A stretch of 64,000 nt of DNA from a virus. Location of the stretch: positions 11,551-75,550 of the IMG/VR virus record IMGVR_UViG_3300045988_157167; one strand, written 5' to 3'. The notes below the pieces were generated by a model. That model was given only the letters and a program-made list of their open reading frames with translations, ran no database searches and was not told where the DNA came from. A program made the translations under genes and the position numbers. Below are positions 1 to 53,403 of the stretch, in pieces. Within the stretch, counting starts at the first letter, position 1, and each line of letters begins with the position of its first letter.

Positions 1-3000
1 ACTTTATCCATATTAGCTTGGACTTGGATAGGTCTATCACTTATATCTCCTATAGTTTCTTTTAATGTTTCTCCTAGCGAATTAGCTATTTCTTTTACTG
101 TGTTATTACTTACACTATTTACAATTTTAAGATTACTGTTACTACTAGCTTCTAATGAAAATTTAGTTGTTTCAGATTGAACAGCCATTTTCATTGCATT
201 TTGCATTTCTGAAGTTACATCCCTAGCTACGGCATATACTTGTTCAGCTTTATTTTTCATACCAACAATTAAACCTTCGTCCATATATTCTCCATAATCA
301 GTGGTAACTTTTGAAGGCGAATTTATTTTAGCAGTTTTTTTCATTTCTGCATTAACTTGATTAACAAGACTTCTTGCTGCACTAACTGCTCTTGCTGTAC
401 CACTTTGAATGCCTTGAGTAACACCATTTGCTAATTGTTGACCAATTTCTCTTGATTGAGTTCTAGCAACATTTTTCATGCTTATCATTTGTCTTGTAAA
501 GTTATTTCTTGCTTCTCTTGATTGAGTAGTTATAACTCTTTTCATTGATATCATTTGATATGTAACAGCATTTCTAGCAAGTGTAATTTGTGTTCTAGAT
601 ACATTTCTAATTGATATCATTTGAGATGTAAGTTTATTCCTAGCCTCTGAAACTTGAGTTGATATAACATTCTTCATGCTTATCATTTGTGATGTAACAA
701 CATTTCTAGCATTTGTAATTTGATTACGTATTATATTACTAATAGATAGAAATTGGTTTCTTACTATATTAGATACATTTAAGCATTGATTTCTAGCTAC
801 GTTTGATATACTTACAAATTGATTTCTTGCTATATTTGCACATCCAACTAAACTAGTTCTTAAATTATTTTGTAATGATGTAAATGCTTGAGAAATTGAA
901 TTTGAAACACTTTGTACTGTTGTCTGTAAAGCTGTTAATTGTGTTTGTAATGCTTTTATTTCATCTGTGTTCATACTAGAAAGTTTAGAATTTATTTTGT
1001 TACTATTAGAATCTTTGCTAGTATTAAGAGGTTTTTCATTACCAGTCTTTTCATCAGCATAAGATTCCCCTGTAAACCAATTTACTAAACCTTGTATTAT
1101 ACCGGTACCACCTTTGCTAAAATCAGGTTTAGAACTAGTAATCCAACTTGTTATTGCTTGCCAAAGTTCTGATGCTCTACCAGTAAATCTGTCAGTTAAG
1201 TTTTCAATAAAACTATCAATAAAAATATCTGCAAAGCTACCAGTTAAAGATTTTATTTGTTCACTTCCTTCTACCCAGGAATTCATTACTGATGCAACTG
1301 CTTCTAAAGCATCATGTATATTGTCTGAATTGTTTTTTATTCCATCTCTTAAAGCATCTAAAATAACTTTACCAGCTTCCTCAACTTCTGGAGCAACATC
1401 TTTAATAAATTGAGAAATTTGTTTAATAGCACTTGAAATACCTTCTCTTATATCACCTTTACTTTTTATAATTCCTTGACAAATTTGATGTATAATTTCT
1501 TTACCGATAGCTAATACTCTGCTTAATCCACCTTTAGTTATAAAAGTATTAATTCCACTAAAAGCCTGTTGAATTGCTCCTGATATATCTGCATTTCTTA
1601 TATATCCAAGCATATTGTCTAATGCTTTTTTGAAATTATCAAATGTATATAAGACTTGGCCATCTTCTACAGTGCCTTCTTTATTTCCACTTCTCCAAAC
1701 ACTGAAAAACTCAGCTAATTTTTCAGAAGTAGATTGAATAGCTGGTTTTAAGAACTCAAATCCTTCTATAGCAACGTCTTGCAAAGCAGATGATAAAATT
1801 AATAATTTGTTTTTAGTTGTTTCATCCATAGCTTGCGCCATTTTTTCAGATAATCCAGTTACTAAATTTAAATTATCACAATATAATTTGAATTGTTCAT
1901 CAGATAAACCACATATTTCATTTATTTCATCTAAAGAATCAGATAAACCTAAATTTGTTAAAATTTGTTCTCTAGTCGCTTGATCCATGTTGCCAAATTT
2001 TTCTCTTAACTGAGTTAAATTTGCTATTAAGTCTATTTGGCCGGTAGATGCGCTTTTAGCAGACATTCCATATTCTTTTAATACTTTATTAGCTTCCTTA
2101 AGTGACATATCTGGATTTAACTTATCAATTATTTCTTGTTTAGAAACAACATCTTTTAACCCTTTAGCACTATCTACTATTCCTTTTGTATTTTCATTAA
2201 TCATGTCACAAGTAGCACTATAGTCAAAAGCATCATCATTAATTTCTTTATAAGTTAATCCAAGTTCTTTAAATTGCTTTTTCTGAGAATTTGTAGGATT
2301 TCTCATTGCATCTAATACACCGAATAAATCTTCAACATTTTTCGATGTTACTTTTGCATCAGAACCTAAAACTTGTAATGCTAAAGCCATATCTTGTGTA
2401 GTCATGTTGAATGCAGCACCTAAATATTCTGTTTGACTTAAAACTTCTTTTAAGTTATCTATTCTTTTACTACATTCTTCTCCAGTAACTCCTGCTTCTC
2501 CTAAATTTTGATTCCAATAAGAAACTGTTTGAGTAGAGTTTTGTACACTATCAGTTAAACTATCATATGCATCATCTGTAGCATTAACAATTGATAGTAA
2601 ACCTGTCATACCCGTTTTCCCAGCTAAATCTTTACATGCAGCTGCTTGCTCAACTAAAGGTAATGATTTTAAACTACTTCTTAAATTTCTTAATGTTTTA
2701 TCTAAGTCAACTGAACCATCTTTCGCAGTAATAAGTTCTATTCCGTATTTTTCCATGGCCTTTGCTACAGTATCGGTAGGTGCACTTAAATTTGCCAATA
2801 GTGTTCTCATTGCAGTACCTGCACGACTTCCCTTTACTGATGAATTCGCCATAAGGCCGATAGCTACGGATAAATCATCCATAGAAACGCCCAATGTCCC
2901 AGCTACTGAACCCGCATATTTCATTGTTTCTCCCATCATTTCAACATCTGTATTACTACGAGTAATAGTTGCTGCCATATAGTCAACAAAGTTTGATGCT

Positions 3001-3137
3001 TGAGATGCGGACATATTCATTGCTGTAAGACCATCAGTGACGATATCACTAGCTGTGCCAAGCTGAGTGGCCCCAATTGTAGTTAAGTTTAAAACATCTT
3101 TAATTGATGCGAGTGACTCTTGAAGTGAAAATCCAGC
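1..3137 (-). CDS. Tail tape measure protein, exon 2 (partial; continues past left edge of window)
   Basis: Minus-strand frame from 3137 reads AGFSLQESLASIKDVLNLTTIGATQLGTASDIVTDGLTAMNMS...MKYAGSVAGTLGVSMDDLSVAIGLMANSSVKGSRAGTAMRTLLANL (TP901-type tape-measure core). The same frame was spot-checked stop-free near 1085 and 119. It is absent from the ORF track because it has no in-window end. Confidence 0.85.
445..840. repeat. About 33-nt (11-codon) periodic tandem repeats inside the tape-measure gene
   Basis: Recurring units such as catgcttatcatttgt..catttct / cattgatatcatttga..catttct / aattgatatcatttgag. Alternate units pair up into a ~66-nt super-repeat. Confidence 0.7.
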
Positions 3138-3818
3138 ATACCGATAGGTAAAACTTTGATATACTTTATGTATAATCTCCATCTTTTCCCCCGGTCCAAA
3201 CCGTACGTGCGACTTTCATCGCATACGGCTTTCCATCGTAAAATTTTACGACTAGAGGCCTTCGCTCCTAATAGTTTTATCCTCCTTTATACATTACTGT
3301 ATATAGTAACTATCGGCTATTAATCAACACTACTATGCTTCCTCTGACTTCTTCTATTTTCAACGATATAGCAATCTCCAATAGAAGATCTCCTAAGTTC
3401 CAATAAGATTATCCCTTTTTTTACTTCGACTTAGGTTTCCTCTGTATGTTATAAGCTATATATAACTGACTACTTTAATCATCATATATTTAGTAAAACT
3501 TTAAATGTAAACAAAGTACGAATGTTTACATTAACTTATAACACTTCAAACAAGGATTCGTCTCCTAACCATATCAAAGTTTTTAAAGATGACCACTCCA
3601 TATAGTTATTTATATAACATCAGGCTTTGTCCTTACCGTACTTTATACAATTCGAGTGCTATCTCTTATGCATAACGGGGTATCATCAATATCACTTTAA
3701 AGTAGTTGTGATAGAAAGAAATTTCATCTTTCAATTCATCTTATTAGTTAAAGTTATAAATAACCTCTCAGCTTTTGTTCTCTATCTCAGAGCTTTTATA
3801 TGCTGAAACTTAGCGTAC
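3138..3818 (-). mobile_element. ORF-less group II intron inside the tape-measure gene
   Basis: 681 nt with no ORF on either strand. It starts GUACG and ends GGUAU, and has a canonical domain V near its 3' end. Flanking exons join in frame to give YMGM|AGF. Confidence 0.8.
3198..3231 (-). ncRNA. Group II intron domain V
   Basis: Minus strand reads AAGCCGUAUGCGAUGAAAGUCGCACGUACGGUUU. It has the AGC triad in the lower helix, a 2-nt CG bulge, a 5-bp upper helix and a U-G-closed GAAA tetraloop. Confidence 0.85.
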
Positions 3819-4376
3819 CATACCCATGTATTGGAAAGCTTCACTTACCTCTGTACTGGTGTACCTAGTGGTTGCTCCGTATTGCCTAGTTGTTTCTGTT
3901 AAGACTTCAATATCTTTTCCAGTAACACCCATAATTGCTGATACACGAGCCATTGAACTTTCAAATTCAATAGCATCTGCCATTAAGGAACTGAAATCAA
4001 AATTAAAATCTGTAACTTGACTAAAACAATCTAAAATAGTATTTGTTGCATTCTGAACTATATCTACAACAGGCTGTAATTTTTCAGATATATTTTGCAA
4101 GTTTTCAAAGAAATTCTGTTTACTAGCATCATATAGTTTTGAAAAAGCAGTTATCATTGTAGTTACTGCTGCAACAACTCCAGCCGCAACTGGTCCAACA
4201 ATTCCACTTAAAGCTTTAAAGGTATTTGAAAATGTTCCAACAATAGAACTCATTTCTCCAAATACTTTGCCAACACCACCTAAATCAGCAAAGGCATTTT
4301 TAAGTTCATTTAACTGACCTTCAACTTGGTCAGATTTTAATTCAACTTCTATAACAACTTTTCCATCTGCTGCCAT
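3819..4376 (-). CDS. Tail tape measure protein, exon 1 (ORF track 3810..4376 includes the read-through codons VR-stop)
   Basis: ORF ends ...TRYTSTEVSEAFQYMGM at the proposed 5' splice site. It lies directly downstream of the tail chaperone genes. Confidence 0.8.
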
Positions 4377-4432: not shown

Positions 4433-4939
4433 TTAATCTATTAAATCATAATAAGATTCAGACTTTTTAAGATAAGTATTATATTCATCTAAACAATGGC
4501 GATAACTTGTATCAAATTTATCTACTCTTTTACTTTGAAAATAAACATAATCGTTATATGCTTTCATAGATTTATTTAAATAATCAAAAGTTATAGCAAA
4601 ATTATTTTGTTCATCTTTATAACTTTCTTTTAGATTAAGATTTCTTATTTCATTACTTAATCCTTTTGTATTATTAAATATTTTTTTTGATATCTTCCCG
4701 CTTATACCACTGTTTATTAACTCTATACTATCATCATAAAGTTTATGATATTTTGAAAAAAGTTTTAATGTTTCACTATCACTTAATACTTGATTTTCTT
4801 CAATATTAGAATTTTCTATAGCAACACTACTTTTTTTATTAGTTATTGCACTAATTGCAGCAATTATTATAGCAATACTTAAAAAAGCTATTATTACAAT
4901 AAAAATGTTTTTCATATTGGACCCCGAGTTTCTTCTCAT
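4433..4939 (-). CDS. Hypothetical membrane-anchored protein (N-terminal TM helix; start may be the MKNIF Met at 4915)
   Basis: ORF track. Hydrophobic segment IFIVIIAFLSIAIIIAAISAI. Confidence 0.55.
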   Translation of the reverse strand: MRRNSGSNMKNIFIVIIAFLSIAIIIAAISAITNKKSSVAIENSNIEENQVLSDSETLKLFSKYHKLYDDSIELINSGISGKISKKIFNNTKGLSNEIRNLNLKESYKDEQNNFAITFDYLNKSMKAYNDYVYFQSKRVDKFDTSYRHCLDEYNTYLKKSESYYDLID

Positions 4940-11385: not shown

Positions 11386-11631
11386 CTATAATTCTATATT
11401 TTCTATTTTTGCTCTTTCTTCTAATACATTTCTGTATGCTTCCATATATACTAATTGAGTGTGTAATATTTCATATGAGCAGTTAGGAGTAAAATTAAGA
11501 GTTCCATTTTTATATCCTTCTAGCATTCTTTGCAATCCAGCTATTCTATTATCTAGTTGATAATATTCAGCTTTAAATCTATCTTTAAAATCTGTTCCTA
11601 ACATTAAATCTACTGTATCTTGTAATTTCAT
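11386..11631 (-). CDS. Hypothetical protein
   Basis: ORF track; good RBS. Confidence 0.55.
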   Translation of the reverse strand: MKLQDTVDLMLGTDFKDRFKAEYYQLDNRIAGLQRMLEGYKNGTLNFTPNCSYEILHTQLVYMEAYRNVLEERAKIENIEL

Positions 11632-14981: not shown

Positions 14982-16733
14982 TTACACACCCAATCTCCTT
15001 CTATCCATGAACCTAATTATATTTTTTGTTTTTATTTTTAGTATTTTATTTGCAAAATCAGAAACAACATCTGCAGCATCATCATGTAGTGTATATGCTG
15101 TTCCTTGAAAGTCTAATATCTGATCTGTAAATGCTTTATTATTATCTGCAAATATTATTTGGCCATTATTAACTGGATCTTGTATAGTTGCAATACGATT
15201 ATCTTTATTTTTATTATTCATATCATTAATAAATATTAAATTTCTTTTCTTTAGTTCAGGTATCTTTTCAATCATTTGTTGTATAGTAGTTACATCTGAA
15301 CCTAAGTAGGTATTTCTTTCTATAGATATATGAGTTATATCTGTAAATTCTAATAAAATATCAATAATTGTATTACAATACTCTGTGAAACTCATTTTTT
15401 CAAGTACCATTCTTCTGATATATTTAAAGTCATTTTCTCCTAATGAACCTACTATCATTGCAAATGAGTCAGTTTTCTTTTTCTTATTAGAAGAATTATC
15501 TCCCGCTGGGTCAACACAAAGCATTGTTTTTAAAAAAATATGGTCCTCTATTTCCTCTACTGATTGAGTTCTTATAGATTTAAACCATTTTTCACCTATA
15601 CTACTAGCATCATTCATTTTTTCTGACATAAATGATTTTCTATTACTCCAGTATTTAACTGCTATATCTATAAAAAAATCCCATTTTTCTTCCCATAAAA
15701 CAGGATATTTCATTTCTTCTTTATGTTTTTCATAAAATTTTCTAGCTTGTATTTGAGGATCTTCTATTTTATCGTCAAAATAAATCTTTTTACATTTAAT
15801 CCATAAATCACTTTCAAATATATCATCTATTGTTTGGCCATCTTCTAATAAAACAGCTCTATTCATAATAGTATGATAATCTCTATTTCTGCTAAGTTTA
15901 CTTATTAAGCAATCAATATGTAAAACAGTTCCTATACTTACAAACTTAGTTGCTGATTTAACTTTTTTACCTTTTCTAAATACTGCAGTATCTCCAACTT
16001 CCTCTACTTCTTTACACCATCTATTCCATTTCTTTTCTCTAGCATCTTCAGTTATAACATCAACTTCGGATTGATAGTCATCGGCAATAACCACCGTAGG
16101 TCTTACACCTCCCCAGTTAGCACCACGGACAGAAGTAGTTGAACCTACTGCTCTTATATATGTATCATTGGTAAACTCAATTTCGCCTGAATTAACCTTG
16201 TAATAATCTTTCGAATTAGGCTTTTTACCTTTTAAATCTATTAAGTTTCCAAATACATCTTTTATAAGCTCATTTTCCAGGAATTCTTTTTTTATAGAAT
16301 TTAAGAATTGCTCGGCATCATCTGCAGTTTTAGCACCTAATAGAGTAAACTTTGATTTTTTATAGCAATGTAACCATATTGCAAGTGTTTTATCGCATAT
16401 AGTTGACTTAGCAAGTCCTCTAGGTTCTACTATATTAAGTTTATCGTATAAATCCTGTACAAAGGCCTCCGAGAGAACTCTCCATATTTTATAATGTTCT
16501 TCACATAATTCCCTTGCACTGTTGTCATCACTTGGCACGAAAGTTGTTCTAAGAAAATATAAACTAAAAAAAGTTATATCCTTTTCTCCAATTACCTTTG
16601 CAACTTCATTAGGAAGATATTTTTTTCTGATATTATTTTGATTTTTAGGAAAATATTTCTTTAAATACTTATCAATCAAGTATATAGAGTATTTATTATC
16701 ATCAGCAAACTCTATATCATCAAAATAAATCAT
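14982..16733 (-). CDS. terL: Terminase large subunit
   Basis: 583 aa. Walker A-like EPRGLAKST, a DD acidic motif (VVIADDYQ), and nuclease-half acidic residues. Confidence 0.8.
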   Translation of the reverse strand: MIYFDDIEFADDNKYSIYLIDKYLKKYFPKNQNNIRKKYLPNEVAKVIGEKDITFFSLYFLRTTFVPSDDNSARELCEEHYKIWRVLSEAFVQDLYDKLNIVEPRGLAKSTICDKTLAIWLHCYKKSKFTLLGAKTADDAEQFLNSIKKEFLENELIKDVFGNLIDLKGKKPNSKDYYKVNSGEIEFTNDTYIRAVGSTTSVRGANWGGVRPTVVIADDYQSEVDVITEDAREKKWNRWCKEVEEVGDTAVFRKGKKVKSATKFVSIGTVLHIDCLISKLSRNRDYHTIMNRAVLLEDGQTIDDIFESDLWIKCKKIYFDDKIEDPQIQARKFYEKHKEEMKYPVLWEEKWDFFIDIAVKYWSNRKSFMSEKMNDASSIGEKWFKSIRTQSVEEIEDHIFLKTMLCVDPAGDNSSNKKKKTDSFAMIVGSLGENDFKYIRRMVLEKMSFTEYCNTIIDILLEFTDITHISIERNTYLGSDVTTIQQMIEKIPELKKRNLIFINDMNNKNKDNRIATIQDPVNNGQIIFADNNKAFTDQILDFQGTAYTLHDDAADVVSDFANKILKIKTKNIIRFMDRRRLGV

Positions 16734-17065: not shown

Positions 17066-17143
17066 TGGCTGGCTTAGTGAGATTCGAACTCACAACAAAC
17101 CATGGTCCGTAGCCATGTGCTCTATCCGTTGAGCTATAAGCCA
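17066..17143 (-). tRNA. trnR: tRNA-Arg (anticodon ACG), CCA encoded
   Basis: Cloverleaf read by eye: acceptor TGGCTTA/TAAGCCA, D arm GCTC/GAGC, anticodon arm CATGG-CTACGGA-CCATG, T arm GTGAG-TTCGAAT-CTCAC. The variable loop is an unusual 7 nt. Confidence 0.75.
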
Positions 17144-17144
17144 A

Positions 17145-18017
17145 TATCTATTAGAAGGCTTGAGATTAGAGCCTTCTGTAGACACCTTTCACGGCATTAT
17201 TTATTCTCCGTTTATCCACGCACCTAATACGTATTGTCCATGACTGGTTGTAATTTTATAGTGCCACAAAACCCTAACACGAGGCACTCTACTATAGTAC
17301 TACTCAACACTTCGTATTCTGTCTGCCTTGCGAGCAACAAAGGTTTGCAAAACCACCATGCAACTTCATGTTAAACGATTCACCCTTGGGAGGTGTTACG
17401 CACTAGATTATATCATGCAATGATATTCTAGTATTAAGCCACTTTCATACTATAAGGGAACAGACTTTTCCTTTTATTGTTTTGTTATCATAGACAATTT
17501 ATCATCCAAAATTAATATTCTCTATGCCTGTATAAATCTGAATTAAATTTGACAGACGTTGTGCTGTTCTTGAAGATTCGTTTCCTTTTGAGACACGAAA
17601 TACTTCACAACATCAGTGTGTTTCATTGAATTCTTACTCCACGTTGTTAATACATACTCCAGCCCTTTCACTGTTTCACTATTAACAATGGTTAGTGCCC
17701 TTTGTTATCAGCATCGGACTATATAACCTCCTGATTATGTCTCGCTACATGACCAATTTGGCGTGAGGTAAATTATTCAGTGCCACCTGAAAATCTTCGA
17801 TATACGGTTCGCCTTTTCGAAGACTGTCCCTCTTGGGTTACGTAGTTATCTCCACTACTATCAATTCATGAAGACGTTGGACATTCAGTTCTGCTTAGAT
17901 GGACTAGTTTAACTAGCGGCATGTAGTCAGCATGCCTTTACACTGCTCACACAATGCTATCCTAAAGATACTAAGCTACCTAAAATAGATTTAGATTTAT
18001 TTTTTAAAACACATACA
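17145..18017 (-). ncRNA. Large (~870 nt) structured non-coding RNA candidate flanked by two tRNAs (GOLLD/ROOL-class guess)
   Basis: No ORF >=60 aa on either strand, and visibly higher G+C than coding DNA. Many local stems, e.g. 17153-17177, 17794-17823, 17918-17936. The minus strand is purine-rich. Confidence 0.55.
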
Positions 18018-18091
18018 TGGCTGGGCGTAATAGATTCGAACTATTATTCCAGGAATCAAAATCCTGTGTCCTACCTTTGAACGAACACCCA
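18018..18091 (-). tRNA. trnQ: tRNA-Gln (anticodon UUG), CCA encoded
   Basis: Acceptor TGGGTGT/ACGCCCA, anticodon arm CAGGA-TTTTGAT-TCCTG, T arm AATAG-TTCGAAT-CTATT; 74 nt. Confidence 0.85.
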
Positions 18092-18888: not shown

Positions 18889-20151
18889 TTAAACATATGC
18901 AAATGTATATCCATGCGTTGTTTTTCCTTTTCCTTGTAATACCCTTTCTATATTTTTTCTTGGGATATTTAGTTTTCTTGCACAAATCCCTATTCCCTCA
19001 ATAATTTCTTCTGAATTATCTTTTAAATTTGTTGCTTTAATAGTTTTCTTAGGAGCAACATTTTTGCTATATTTAGCTTTTACTGCCAATATAGAAGTGT
19101 AATCCTTACTTTCTATATATGGAATTAACTGTTGTTTTACATTTATAGCATCTTCTTCTGTTTTAAAATGGCCTATTGGTATCTGATTTCCATTAAAGGT
19201 TATTCTTAAAAACCAACTTTTCCTTTTAATATCATAATTAACTCCTTTTTCTTTGCTCTTATACATATTTTTATTTCTTATTTTTCTTAGCTTTTTACAT
19301 TGCTCTTGTAATCCTTCTCTTTCACACATTTTTTCAAGTGTATATCTCGAATGTCCAGTAAAATTTTCCATATCTATAAACGTTTCGATACCTTTTTCCA
19401 TTCCTTTTAAAAATTTTTGTTTCATTCGAGTATTTTTCACATCTTTAAAAACTTTACCATAATCTTTTATTTTTTCTTTGTAAAAAATAGTTCTAATGCT
19501 ATTTTCTGCAAGATTATATTTATTACAAAGTTCTTCTAAAGAATAATTATAAGAATATAAATCCTCTATAATTTTTTTATTTCTACACTCTATAAAATTT
19601 AATTGTTTGATTTTTTCATTTAAATCGGATCTCACATCTATCCAAGAGTCAAGATTTTTAATGCTATAAATGATATTTTCTCTAACTCCAGTTAATTTAG
19701 ATATTTTCTTTATAGAGATTGGATTATTTTCTAGTACTGACAACATTTCCTTAACCTTAGCAATTTGATGCTCTGTATAATCACTTCTTTCTCTATTTAC
19801 TTTCTTTAAATTTTCTAATCTTTTCTTTCGTATTTCTTCTGGAATTTCATTTAGAAAATAGTCTCCACCTTCTGTCATATTAAATCCATTATTATAAGTA
19901 TCATATTTTTTTATATAATACTTTTCTAAATCATTTAAAATGTCAAGTTCATCACAATAATATATAGCTTTAAACTTAAAAGCATCTTCTCCATATTTAT
20001 TCCAACTTCTTTGAAGATATTCATTATCATGATTACCTCTATTTAAAGCACTTATATGGCTTTTCCATCTTTTTTCAAAATCTTGGATCGTTTGTCCTAT
20101 ATACATATCACCTGTTACTACATTTGTTATTGAGTAAATTCCAAAATACAT
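18889..20151 (-). CDS. GIY-YIG homing endonuclease with AP2-like DNA-binding domain
   Basis: N-terminus YFGIYSITNVVTGDMYIGQT...R...H..L..G.H.N. C-terminal GVNYDIKRKSWFLRITFNGNQIPIGHFKTEEDA is AP2-type. Confidence 0.8.
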   Translation of the reverse strand: MYFGIYSITNVVTGDMYIGQTIQDFEKRWKSHISALNRGNHDNEYLQRSWNKYGEDAFKFKAIYYCDELDILNDLEKYYIKKYDTYNNGFNMTEGGDYFLNEIPEEIRKKRLENLKKVNRERSDYTEHQIAKVKEMLSVLENNPISIKKISKLTGVRENIIYSIKNLDSWIDVRSDLNEKIKQLNFIECRNKKIIEDLYSYNYSLEELCNKYNLAENSIRTIFYKEKIKDYGKVFKDVKNTRMKQKFLKGMEKGIETFIDMENFTGHSRYTLEKMCEREGLQEQCKKLRKIRNKNMYKSKEKGVNYDIKRKSWFLRITFNGNQIPIGHFKTEEDAINVKQQLIPYIESKDYTSILAVKAKYSKNVAPKKTIKATNLKDNSEEIIEGIGICARKLNIPRKNIERVLQGKGKTTHGYTFAYV

Positions 20152-42450: not shown

Positions 42451-43698
42451 TTATATCACACTATCTAACCAATAAATTTTATTATATTTCCAAAGTAATC
42501 TACATTTTCTTACATTGACTTTTTTGCAATGTTTTGTAGGACTTTGAAAATTTAATGCGTTCAAATGTGGATATAATGCTGTAACATATCCTTTATGAGT
42601 TTCTCCATTTCTGTAAGTATATTCAACCAAATCTCTATGTTTAATTCCTAATACATTATCTGTTTTTGCTTTTGATTTTCTACGCATCGGTTTAATCATC
42701 CATTCTTTTATATTGCAAGTATCTGGAAAACAATTTGTTATACAAATAGCATCGTTTGAATGAGATTTTTCTATATTCCATTCAATTCTTTTATTTGCAG
42801 TATCTCCACCTGTTGTAAGATGTAATATTCCTAATTGTTTAATATTTTCTCTAAGATAATTTTTACCTTGCATGACATGCATTGCATAATCAAATCTTTT
42901 TGGCTTACTTTTTATTTTGGTGAAATATCTCTCTTCAAATTCTCGTTCTTTCCCTTCTGTCTTTTGATGACAAGAAGAACAAAGAGTAATGAGATTCCCA
43001 ATAGTATTTGCTCCACCAAATCTCTTTGCTCGAATATGATGAACCTCAAGTACAGTATTTGTTTTTCCACATTCTTGACATTTACAACTATCTCTTAATA
43101 TTGTCGCTTTTCTAAGATTTTCATCTAATCTATTATTCTTCTGATATTGCCAATTATAAGGTTTATATCCATCGGCCATTGCTCTTATATCTATTGCTAC
43201 ATCTTCAAGATAATATTCTTTAATATTTATCCATTTATTTAATTGATATAAAACTCTAAGAATAGAATCTTTCTTTTGTTTAATACTTGGCGCTAATCTA
43301 TTAGTTTTTTTTGAAGATGCTCTATTATTGAATCTAGGTTTACGATATCTTTTATGATATCTACGGTATTGTCTATATCCTCTACGAACATCCATTAAGT
43401 GTTTTACATCTTGTCTTTGTTCAATAGTTCCTTTAAATACAACTTTATTTTTACTTGGACATTTTTGAACAATTGCTATTCCAACATGAGAACTACCATC
43501 GTCAATTCCACAAACCATATGACTTTCATCTTCGTCATCAGGTTCAACTTCTTTTTCTAACTGAATTACCATAGGATATTTACTTTTTAATTTTGCTCGA
43601 CCTTTTCTAATCAAATACCAACCTTTATTTACTTTAGTTGGAGCTAAAGGTCTATTGTTTTTATCTACAACAAAACAATATTCAATTTTATTTTCCAT
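42451..43698 (-). CDS. iscB: IscB RNA-guided nuclease (copy 1)
   Basis: PLMP-type N-terminus ([26 protein letters not shown]), Ruv[16 protein letters not shown], an Arg-rich bridge helix, Ruv[28 protein letters not shown], and Ruv[13 protein letters not shown]. Confidence 0.85.
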
Positions 43699-51679: not shown

Positions 51680-53062
51680 TTATATCGCAAAATTACTTTC
51701 GTATTGCCAATTATTATTATGATTTATGAATTTCAAGGCATAAATTGAAACTTGTTTATATTTTTTGCCTGGTATAGTTATATACTCATCATTTATATTT
51801 TTTACATAAGCAGATGATTTGCCAGAAAAACCTGTAATATAACCAATTTGACCAAAGATTTCTACTTTATCATTAAGGTAAAAACCATTTGCAAAACTTG
51901 TATTTTTCTCATTTCTTTTGCTTTCAGTGTTTTTAGTTTTTCTACCTTTTCTAGCTGTCGCTTCATGCAGTGAACGTTTTTTCTTTCTAAACTGCTTTAT
52001 TTTAAAAACTTCATCACAGTTTTGATTTATACATTCAACTTTACTTATTGCAATAGCATCGTTATAATGAGTTTTCTCAAGTCCAAGTTTTTTTCTTCTT
52101 GGTGTTGTTATAGAACCATAAGTTATGTTAGCTTGAGGATATTTTTTAAATACTTTTACCCTCATTGAGTTCATAAACGGTGGTTCTTTATAAGTTTTCA
52201 TCTTTTTCTTTTTTATCATCCATTCATAAAGTATGCCGCCTGGTTTATGATTCTCAGATGTGTGACAATCAGTACAAATTGTAGCTAAGTTGTCAGCTCT
52301 ATCGCTTCCACCTTTACTTTTATAAATTACATGATGTGTATGAAGTACTTTATCTTTACTTTTTTTACAAACCTGGCAAGTGTAATTATCTCTTGCAAAG
52401 ACAAAGTATCTCGTATTATAAAAGCCGAAGGCTTCGCCTTGTTGATAATCAGCACCTTCTATTTCTGGATTTATCATTTTAGCCATATCAAATTTACCTA
52501 CTTCAATACTTAAATTGCATTTTGGAAGTAAATTATAATATTTATCAATCCAGAAAAATGTATTATCTATTTTAGACTGTATGCTTGGCGGCAGCCAACC
52601 AACAGGTCTATTTGAATCTATGTTTGTAGATAGTGTTCTCCAGTTCTTTTTGGAGTCACTACCTTTTTTAAGAGTTTTTAGTTTTGCTCCTTTTGGAGCA
52701 TTAAAAACTCTTTTATTTCTGAAGTTAAATTTACATCTTCTATATCTAGTTTTTCTAGAACGTCTACCTCTTCTTAGAATTTTTTTAGTTTCTATTAAAC
52801 TACTTACATCTTGTCTAAGTTCTATTTCACCTTTTGCTAATACTTTATTTTGGGTAGTTACAGCTATACCAATGTTTTTAGAACCTAAATCGACACCTAA
52901 ATTAGTATTTTGTGTATATCCATAAGAACCGTAAATAAGTTTTATTGTAAATGGTTTATAATTTACTATCTTTGCTTTCTTTTCTTTTATTAATTTTCTA
53001 GCACGTTGAGGCTTACAAGGCATCAACGGCTTATTGTTTTTATTAAGTACGTATACTACCAT
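51680..53062 (-). CDS. iscB: IscB RNA-guided nuclease (copy 2; start moved to MVVYVLNKNNKPLMPC behind RBS ggagg)
   Basis: Literal PLMP motif, RuvC-I GVDLGSKNIGIAV, RuvC-II SIEVGKFD, HNH CQVCKK..HTHHV..N..TIC..CH, and RuvC-III HYNDAIAIS. The tracked 28-codon N-terminal extension overlaps the RNA block. Confidence 0.85.
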   Translation of the reverse strand: MVVYVLNKNNKPLMPCKPQRARKLIKEKKAKIVNYKPFTIKLIYGSYGYTQNTNLGVDLGSKNIGIAVTTQNKVLAKGEIELRQDVSSLIETKKILRRGRRSRKTRYRRCKFNFRNKRVFNAPKGAKLKTLKKGSDSKKNWRTLSTNIDSNRPVGWLPPSIQSKIDNTFFWIDKYYNLLPKCNLSIEVGKFDMAKMINPEIEGADYQQGEAFGFYNTRYFVFARDNYTCQVCKKSKDKVLHTHHVIYKSKGGSDRADNLATICTDCHTSENHKPGGILYEWMIKKKKMKTYKEPPFMNSMRVKVFKKYPQANITYGSITTPRRKKLGLEKTHYNDAIAISKVECINQNCDEVFKIKQFRKKKRSLHEATARKGRKTKNTESKRNEKNTSFANGFYLNDKVEIFGQIGYITGFSGKSSAYVKNINDEYITIPGKKYKQVSIYALKFINHNNNWQYESNFAI

Positions 53063-53403
53063 AAAGTATACCTCCTTCGAGTTATTTGAATCACCGACCA
53101 AAAGTGGTGGGCGACACGAAATTTTCCCTTCGCCAATGTTAAGCATACTTCTTGCACCAAGTTGACTGTTCTTACCTCACAGAACTGTTTACAGAGCCCG
53201 AACAACAAAAGGTGCTAGGGAATCACACCAAGCTGTATTGATACACTTAACGTAGCTTATTCGCTGTGCCAAATCGCACATCCCGACAAGCTAAGGCTAG
53301 ACAATATTAAGGCAAAAGCCTTACCCCCAAATCTAGAGTCATACTGGGGCTTATATTGAAATACAAGCCCCTTCTATAATCTCCGTAGGTGATTTAGGAG
53401 GGG
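53063..53403 (-). ncRNA. Omega-RNA (HEARO-type) candidate for IscB copy 2, including the left-end hairpin
   Basis: ~340 nt, ORF-free and markedly G+C-rich. Stems include ggggctt/aagcccc, aaggc-tttt-gcctt, tgtgc/gcaca, ggcga/tcgcc and cacc/ggtg. Confidence 0.7.
53368..53403 (-). repeat. Left-end (LE) subterminal hairpin of the IscB element
   Basis: Plus strand reads ccccttctataatctccgtaggtgatttaggagggg. Confidence 0.7.

Follow-up and report, generated by a model that had tools for sequence, protein, structure and literature searches.

We identified, in a stretch of virus DNA of 64,000 nucleotides (nt) covering positions 11,551 to 75,550 of IMG/VR record IMGVR_UViG_3300045988_157167 (herein the window, the whole stretch analyzed), a 681-nt insert at 3138-3818 on the minus strand that is very probably an intact group IIB ribozyme intron lying within the conserved TP901-type domain of the tail tape-measure gene, a gene essential to the phage. 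The insert has no open reading frame (ORF) of consequence, and we put the probability of this reading at roughly 0.92. A first-pass annotation, made from the sequence alone, had proposed an intron at this position. The gene is laid out as follows (a slash marks the exon junction here and below):

3819..4376 (-), tape-measure exon 1; 186 codons, with its ATG at 4376 behind AAGGAGG
3138..3818 (-), ORF-less group II intron, 681 nt; placed by RF00029, the limits of similarity to the c-st intron and the intron-less allele L130
3810..3812 (-), in-frame UAA at intron nt 7-9; terminates the unspliced reading after ...MGMVR
1..3137 (-), tape-measure exon 2, partial; 1045 open codons, running off the window start
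3819 to 3137 (-), predicted spliced-junction 40-mer; CTTTCCAATACATGGGTATG/GCTGGATTTTCACTTCAAGA
YMGM/AGF region, predicted junction-spanning peptide; ...AFQYMGMAGFSLQ...

Left unspliced, the ORF at 3810-4376 (-) has a strong ribosome-binding site upstream and encodes 188 amino acids (aa) with the terminus ...SEAFQYMGMVR-stop. Exon 2, read on the same strand from 3137, opens with AGFSLQESLASIKDVLNL..., and joining the two exons gives YMGM/AGF in frame at residues 186/187 (DNA join AUG/GCU). The first-pass annotation was right on each of these points: exon 1 at 3819-4376 ending ...SEAFQYMGM, the VR-stop when unspliced, the in-frame resumption at 3137 and a junction at the tape-measure core. On the spliced protein, PF10145 (PhageMin_Tail) covers residues 161-359 (185.6 bits, cut-off 33.2; E 1.3e-54) and TIGR01760 (tape_meas_TP901, NCBIfam) covers residues 130-389 (179 bits, cut-off 28.8); both models cross the junction. 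Exon 1 by itself reaches only TIGR01760 profile positions 10-67, under the cut-off, and the intron splits that profile at about position 67 of 349. On these matches the host gene is predicted to encode a TP901-family tail tape-measure protein of about 1262 aa once spliced.

Comparison with uninterrupted homologs, which the first-pass annotation had named as a check, supports the same exon structure. Decisive here are the sister IMG/VR contigs L130-L132 and L134, which encode an insert-free tape-measure protein that is colinear over 667 aa (89-97% identity); the distant tape-measure genes of C. difficile phages are colinear over the insertion site. In the closely related contig L130, exon 1 is joined exactly to exon 2 at the DNA level (...CAATACATGGGTATG/GCTGGATTTTCAC...; at the junction ...ATGGGTATG/GCTGGATTT...). 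A 6-nt repeat, GGTATG, is present at both insert borders, so that the junction taken from DNA comparison alone is ambiguous by a few bases; the boundaries 3818 and 3138 are fixed by the consensus for group II intron ends, by where the Rfam match stops and by alignment with the c-st intron.

The insert begins 5' GUACG and ends GGUAU 3', as first described. The Rfam domain V/VI model RF00029 (gathering score 40 bits) matches 3233-3138 with 64.2 bits and an E of 2.6e-10 over the whole 64-kb window, and the match terminates on the last proposed intron base, 3138. For domains I to IV (D1-D4) the best family is RF02004 (D1D4-5), over 3752-3582, whose 31.8 bits lie just under its gathering score, 34.5 (local-search E 8.6e-5). 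The covariance-model check put forward in the first-pass annotation thus held for domains V and VI and fell narrowly short for D1-D4. RF02004 is the family matching IIB phage introns in Table S1 of Merk et al., all of subtype B (PMC12350094). Assignment to subgroup IIB is suggested by homology to the c-st intron, itself classed B, together with this best D1-D4 family, and not by EBS3 or AARC-bulge motifs (EBS, exon-binding site). At the 3' end, AU fits the AY consensus. The 5' GUACG departs from the consensus GUGYG at position 3; the published phage IIB introns of c-st, AR9 and Internexus begin GUAUG (PMC12350094). Two other kinds of element were rejected: a group I intron, as the window has no RF00028 match, and an intein, as an in-frame stop lies two codons into the insert. 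The insert had also been described as visibly richer in G+C than its flanks, which proved incorrect: the intron has 32.5% G+C, compared with 34.2% in exon 1 and 35.0% in the first kb of exon 2, and only its domain V/VI end reaches about 40%.

The c-st intron (NC_007581, 115302..114619; subtype B, ORF-less, GTATG...AT; Merk, Jones & Eddy, NAR 2025, PMC12350094) is the sole full-length relative in the phage and plasmid collections, with 76.5% identity over 94% of the window intron. Similarity starts at G1 and stops at the final U, and the flanking exons are unrelated; the c-st boundaries that we derived independently equal the published ones. A consensus fold was computed with RNAalifold on the window intron, the c-st intron and two near-identical copies, and has six domains:

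3393..3813 (-), Domain I; intron nt 6-426
3515..3520 (-), EBS1 CGUACU; intron nt 299-304, in a 9-nt hairpin loop (nt 297-305)
3819..3824 (-), intron-binding site 1 (IBS1) GGUAUG; final 6 nt of exon 1
3624..3628 (-), tentative EBS2 AAAGC; intron nt 191-195, pairing with exon -21..-17 GCUUU (3835-3839)
3346..3392 (-), Domain II; intron nt 427-473
3254..3342 (-), Domain III; intron nt 477-565, with the J2/3 linker AGA before it
3235..3252 (-), Domain IV; intron nt 567-584, a bare 18-nt hairpin without ORF or ORF remnant
3198..3231 (-), Domain V; intron nt 588-621, 34 nt, with the AGC triad at 3230-3228, a 2-nt bulge and a GAAA loop
3140..3195 (-), Domain VI; intron nt 624-679, with a bulged branch-point A674 at 3145
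3180..3190 (-), GGGAAAAG-AUG in domain VI, in frame with exon 2; taken by gene callers as the start of a "1091-aa" ORF

Domain V agrees in every particular with the first-pass description: 3231 to 3198, AGC triad, 2-nt bulge, GAAA loop closed by U-G, and an end 60 nt before the intron 3' end. The bulged A3145 is the eighth nt counting back from the intron 3' end, so that 7 nt separate it from the 3' splice site, and has 5 bp beneath it. Across the 211 consensus pairs 98.6% of cells are paired, and 35 pairs are altered on both sides in a compensatory manner, compared with 0-2 in controls that shift the 3' partners by 1-3 columns. These include 5 of the 7 pairs of the domain I closing helix and a C-G to U-A change in domain VI relative to c-st; the c-st domain IV hairpin is 21 nt long and has one compensated pair. 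The single-sequence minimum-energy fold (z = -4.5) returns the same domains except domain III.

Pairing with the exon changes together with the target. In the window CGUACU is complementary to GGUAUG, while in c-st the same columns read CGCCUA and are complementary to that intron's own exon, UGGGUG; the stem under the loop has four compensated pairs between the two introns. On this comparison the loop-exon pairing is the EBS1-IBS1 interaction, covarying with its target. Side by side, the window and c-st introns illustrate how EBS1 adapts to a new site in an ORF-less ribozyme that stays intact. For EBS2 the candidate columns are AAAGC/GCUUU in the window and GUCAUA/UAUGAC in c-st, with an atypical spacing to IBS1 (10 nt and 6 nt), and searching with exact complements and RNAduplex turned up several candidates that contradict one another. 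The perfect 6-mers of domain III in the window and of domain II in c-st do not lie at homologous positions and were rejected as EBS2 for that reason.

The exact 188-aa product, including its intron-encoded VR-stop, is indexed in public assemblies in 271 blocks, and the contigs that bear it reach 103 kb (ERZ28563760 scaffold_146); study-style sample names suggest that the carriers come from human gut metagenomes. Among ten carrier contigs only 0-4 of the 681 intron positions differ (≤0.6%), whereas divergence is 6.3-7.7% in exon 2 and as high as 7.9% in exon 1; the exon differences nearest to the intron are at -40 and +30. The intron is found on at least three distinct exon haplotype combinations, and alongside the carriers there are intron-less alleles whose target site is identical (L130). 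Constraint alone does not explain the near-identity, because the window and c-st introns differ by 24% and many positions are thus changeable. The simplest reading of these alignments is a spread of the intron, ongoing or very recent, among diverged tape-measure alleles of a phage group that is common in human-gut-type metagenomes; a near-invariant intron in exons 7-8% diverged would make a concrete case for mobility without an intron-encoded protein.

Several points weigh against an intact and recently mobile intron at 3138-3818. The D1-D4 covariance model scores just below the Rfam gathering score; no D1-D4 match is listed for the c-st intron either (PMC12350094). The 5' end is GUACG rather than the commoner GUGYG, though GUAUG is found in c-st and AR9. 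Essentially all the covariation comes from a single diverged relative, c-st, and the EBS2-IBS2 pairing is not placed convincingly. Splicing is deduced from sequence and predicted fold, and part of the low intron diversity could be due to purifying selection acting on the ribozyme and not to recent transfer.

The first-pass statement that the insert holds no ORF of 60 aa or more is correct, but narrowly: taking both strands, the longest reach 59 and 55 aa. Its statement that no reverse transcriptase (RT) or maturase is encoded in the intron or the window also stands; no Pfam family of either kind was found among the 29 window ORFs of ≥200 aa, and tblastn of the 630-aa group II intron protein of contig L208 against the window gave nothing better than E 0.38. 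As no maturase or RT is encoded in the intron or elsewhere in the 64-kb window, and domain IV is an 18-nt hairpin, splicing must be RNA-autonomous or aided by host factors. With no intron-encoded protein and no domain IV protein-binding arm, the intron is not an autonomous retroelement.

From the fold we propose the following sequence of events. Unspliced pre-mRNA would be translated only as far as ...MGMVR-stop (the UAA at intron nt 7-9), leaving the intron free to fold. EBS1 would grip the 5' exon and the 2'-OH of A3145 would attack the 5' splice site; the freed exon 1 would then attack the 3' splice site, with AUG/GCU ligation and lariat release. The full tape-measure protein of about 1262 aa would come from spliced mRNA only. 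Spread could proceed by reverse splicing that uses an RT provided in trans, or co-infecting phages could exchange the intron by recombination. The suggestion in the first-pass annotation that splicing efficiency gates tail assembly is speculation, neither supported nor contradicted by these data. It is unlikely, in our estimate, that the ORF-less intron, whose domain IV leaves no space for a dedicated maturase, both splices autonomously in vivo and is sweeping a common human-gut phage population, moving from one diverged tape-measure allele to another with almost no flanking co-conversion; if true, it would be a natural example of efficient protein-independent (or host-factor-only) group II splicing and mobility.

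A working ribozyme may instead depend on a maturase/RT acting in trans, from a host-resident group II intron or a co-infecting phage, for efficient splicing and retrohoming. This is a sub-hypothesis on how the intron works, not on what it is, and we regard it as possible if somewhat doubtful. Introns of the same D1D4-5 type do carry proteins, as the distant examples in L208 and L214 illustrate (a 630-aa RT-X-HNH protein and a 457-aa homing endonuclease, respectively), and the population pattern points to recent spread. Trans-mobilization is what Merk et al. propose for phage introns that lack an ORF, and in the c-st host they report a diverged relative of the c-st intron (PMC12350094). On the other side, domain IV spans only 18-21 nt in the window and c-st, which leaves no room for the usual high-affinity protein-binding stem. 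That stem sits in subdomain IVa of group II introns. The ORF-less state is also older than the 24% divergence of the two introns and the fold is nevertheless intact, and the Pfam and tblastn searches found no RT in the window.

Spread at the DNA level, by homologous recombination in co-infection or by double-strand-break repair following cleavage by a free-standing phage nuclease (collaborative homing), seems to us rather unlikely. In its favor are a GIY-YIG/NUMOD endonuclease (18889-20151) and two RRXRR+HNH proteins encoded in the window, the HNH-type or Vsr-like endonuclease ORFs of other inserts in sister tape-measure genes, and mosaic breakpoints near the intron. However, no such nuclease adjoins the tape-measure gene or has a known target; the flanks identical in all carriers extend only about 40 nt upstream and about 30 nt downstream, and retrohoming without co-conversion fits them at least as well.

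Unspliced RNA could in principle express a C-terminal fragment from the AUG in domain VI, which may be there by chance; c-st has UUG at the same column (L001 5611), and CST127 is annotated from that UUG. That the insert is a dead relic, with tape-measure function supplied by two polypeptides (the 188-aa N-terminal product and a 1091-aa product from the domain VI AUG), is very improbable: the GGGGGAAAAG-AUG is in frame with exon 2 and used by gene callers and has its UUG counterpart in c-st, but a 15-codon open stretch with a start codon easily arises by chance, all catalytic features are intact with 35 pairs kept by compensatory change, EBS1 still fits the exon, the break falls within a conserved domain (TIGR01760 position about 67 of 349), and near-identical copies of the intron occur across diverged alleles.

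The window intron is the second member of the c-st lineage, with a new target and a new host gene, and belongs to a kind already published for phages. Like the c-st intron it belongs to one length class (681 vs. 684 nt), has a six-domain fold with a minimal domain IV, an AGC triad and an ...AU end, and lacks an ORF; the two domains V differ by one base, and both introns lie in a tail-module gene of a low-G+C Clostridia phage. The c-st intron, by contrast, lies between CST128 (a YomG-like minor tail/tail-spike gene) and CST127 and not in the tape-measure gene, has a different EBS1 that fits a different exon, is 24% diverged, and is known from one prophage-plasmid, whereas the window intron is in many metagenomic contigs. 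Only the c-st plasmid record matched at full length in the plasmid collection, and megablast of the locus against isolated phages gave no match.

Phage group II introns, that of c-st included, were first catalogued in 2025, and none of the 20 listed is in a tape-measure gene (PMC12350094). A full-text literature search combining "group II intron" and "tape measure" returned no report of such an intron; the window intron adds the tape-measure gene to the host genes of phage group II introns. The IMG/VR contigs carrying the window intron are probably already among the bulk hits of that catalog (PMC12350094), undescribed. Jumbo-phage introns (LPJP1, PALS_2 and Internexus, and the endonuclease-carrying AR9/PBS1; PMC12350094) are likewise of the Rfam D1D4-5 type and interrupt essential conserved genes; those of Listeria LPJP1, Staphylococcus PALS_2 and Bacillus Internexus are ORF-less, and ORF-less ones measure 580-690 nt (PMC12350094). 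BLAST aligns them to the window intron in domains V and VI only, at 75-89% similarity. Unlike the window intron they lie in RNA polymerase, terminase or DNA polymerase genes, and the LPJP1 genome also has an RT-encoding intron (PMC12350094).

Mobile introns of the Ll.LtrB type share the ribozyme core, the branch-point A and EBS-IBS targeting; unlike the window intron, they encode an RT/maturase, Ll.LtrB being the example of a mobile bacterial group II intron with such an intron-encoded protein. A domain V pattern scan of bacterial and archaeal contigs matched at least 120 loci, none of them beyond domains V-VI; because the pattern is common to very many group II introns, the scan is uninformative on the host and yielded no RT-encoding relatives. 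The pattern AAGGAGGATAAAACTA hit 91 loci in viral contigs and was discarded, since the newly fetched ones had no intron match and the motif resembles a ribosome-binding site. The patterns GTATAAAGTACGGTAAGG and ATACAGAGGAAACCTAA (viral contigs) and GAAGTCAGAGGANNCATAGTAG (metagenome contigs) found near-identical copies in L005, L009, L213 and L220 only, and also drew the distant D1D4-5 introns of L208, L214, L215 and L218. Of these, L208 (4141-6900, minus strand) holds the 630-aa RT-X-HNH protein, and L214 (4-1790, minus strand) holds the 457-aa homing-endonuclease ORF, with Cys-rich repeats and a Vsr-like ...IEFDGIQHF... end; by eye, the latter resembles the endonuclease type described by Merk et al. 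(PMC12350094).

The tape-measure core is a hot spot for self-splicing elements in related phages. Numbering the insertion sites of sister phages by residues of the spliced window protein, site ~222 is occupied in sister contigs by group I introns of about 270 nt (RF00028, 105-106 bits) and in one contig by a 1390-nt version with a 321-aa HNH ORF. Site ~258 holds inserts of about 257 nt, one with a 59.8-bit group I match, and in other contigs a 1256-nt version with a 317-aa Vsr-like endonuclease ORF. Some sister contigs have two or three intervening sequences in a single tape-measure gene. Inserts at sites ~222 and ~258 are located as follows, in contig coordinates:

L148, 2702-2973 and 3102-3344
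L147, 1320-1591
L145, 1611-3001
L165, 1745-3000
L157, 3381-3639
L220, 2646-2920

More distant genes are interrupted as well. In L191 a 778-nt ORF-less group II intron (2224-3001; GUGCG...AAU, D1D4-5 at 111 bits) splits a distant tape-measure gene at residue 218/219 (DI/VTD) and is of a different lineage from the window intron. L192 has a 1040-nt insert (about 1961-3000) with a 246-aa HNH ORF after ...SYMGMA (residue ~187), within a codon or two of the window intron's site. Unclassified inserts of 270-377 nt lie in the distant tape-measure genes of L190 (about 3160-3427), L187 and L188 (about 3200-3590). Neither the other inserts of L145, L157, L187, L188, L190 and L192 nor those at site C in L165 and L220 matched any Rfam family at E < 0.01. 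In B. cereus-group prophages the tape-measure genes carry group I introns at several alternative sites of their conserved part, with occupancy patchy from one related phage to the next (Tourasse & Kolsto 2008, PMC2504315). The same host gene and the same patchy multi-site pattern are thus seen in the window's phage family too; the window intron differs from those group I introns in ribozyme class, splicing chemistry and mobility mechanism.

A separate anomaly was seen in the tape-measure genes of L135-L144, where at about locus 3238 (L135 3230-3245) an extra A gives GAA CTC A GGC in place of the intron-less CTT/CTC GGT/GGC. The zero frame reads CTC AGG CAC AGC TAG, with a stop four codons on, and skipping the A restores the conserved ELGTASD. 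CUC-AGG-C may mark a programmed +1 frameshift site, or the gene may be truly split.

Public gene calls divide the tape-measure protein into 188-aa and 1091-aa ORFs in all six contigs inspected, from among many assemblies with the intron-bearing allele. Once the intron is recognized, the two become one gene of about 1262 aa; because tape-measure length sets tail length, the split calls would mislead tail-length prediction.

The window is a siphovirus-type genome of a gut Clostridia-type phage and encodes an SPP1-like portal, a Gp15-like protein and the TP901-type tape-measure protein. The nearest isolate relatives are C. perfringens and C. difficile phages (portal identity 41-46%). Sister contigs measure 52-103 kb, several of them 63-70 kb, so that most of the genome is probably within the window. 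Between the Gp15-like gene and the tape-measure gene lies a 168-aa ORF (4433-4939, minus strand) whose N terminus has a hydrophobic segment; phage tail modules usually place tail-assembly chaperone genes at this position. An NCBIfam search with the ORF gave no match.

Further along the minus strand is a full-length GOLLD RNA (17157-17615; RF02032, 187 bits, E 4.7e-51), an RNA reported in association with phages. It is flanked by tRNAs at 17069-17143 (-) and 18021-18091 (-), just upstream of a terminase-like ORF (14982-16733), and the GIY-YIG and NUMOD-like homing endonuclease (18889-20151, minus strand, 420 aa) adjoins this tRNA/GOLLD region. The two RRXRR+HNH proteins, at 42451-43698 (-) (415 aa; RRXRR E 8e-49) and 51680-53146 (-) (488 aa; RRXRR E 1e-52, with a weak RuvX match), have a make-up that we take to be that of IscB-type RNA-guided nucleases.

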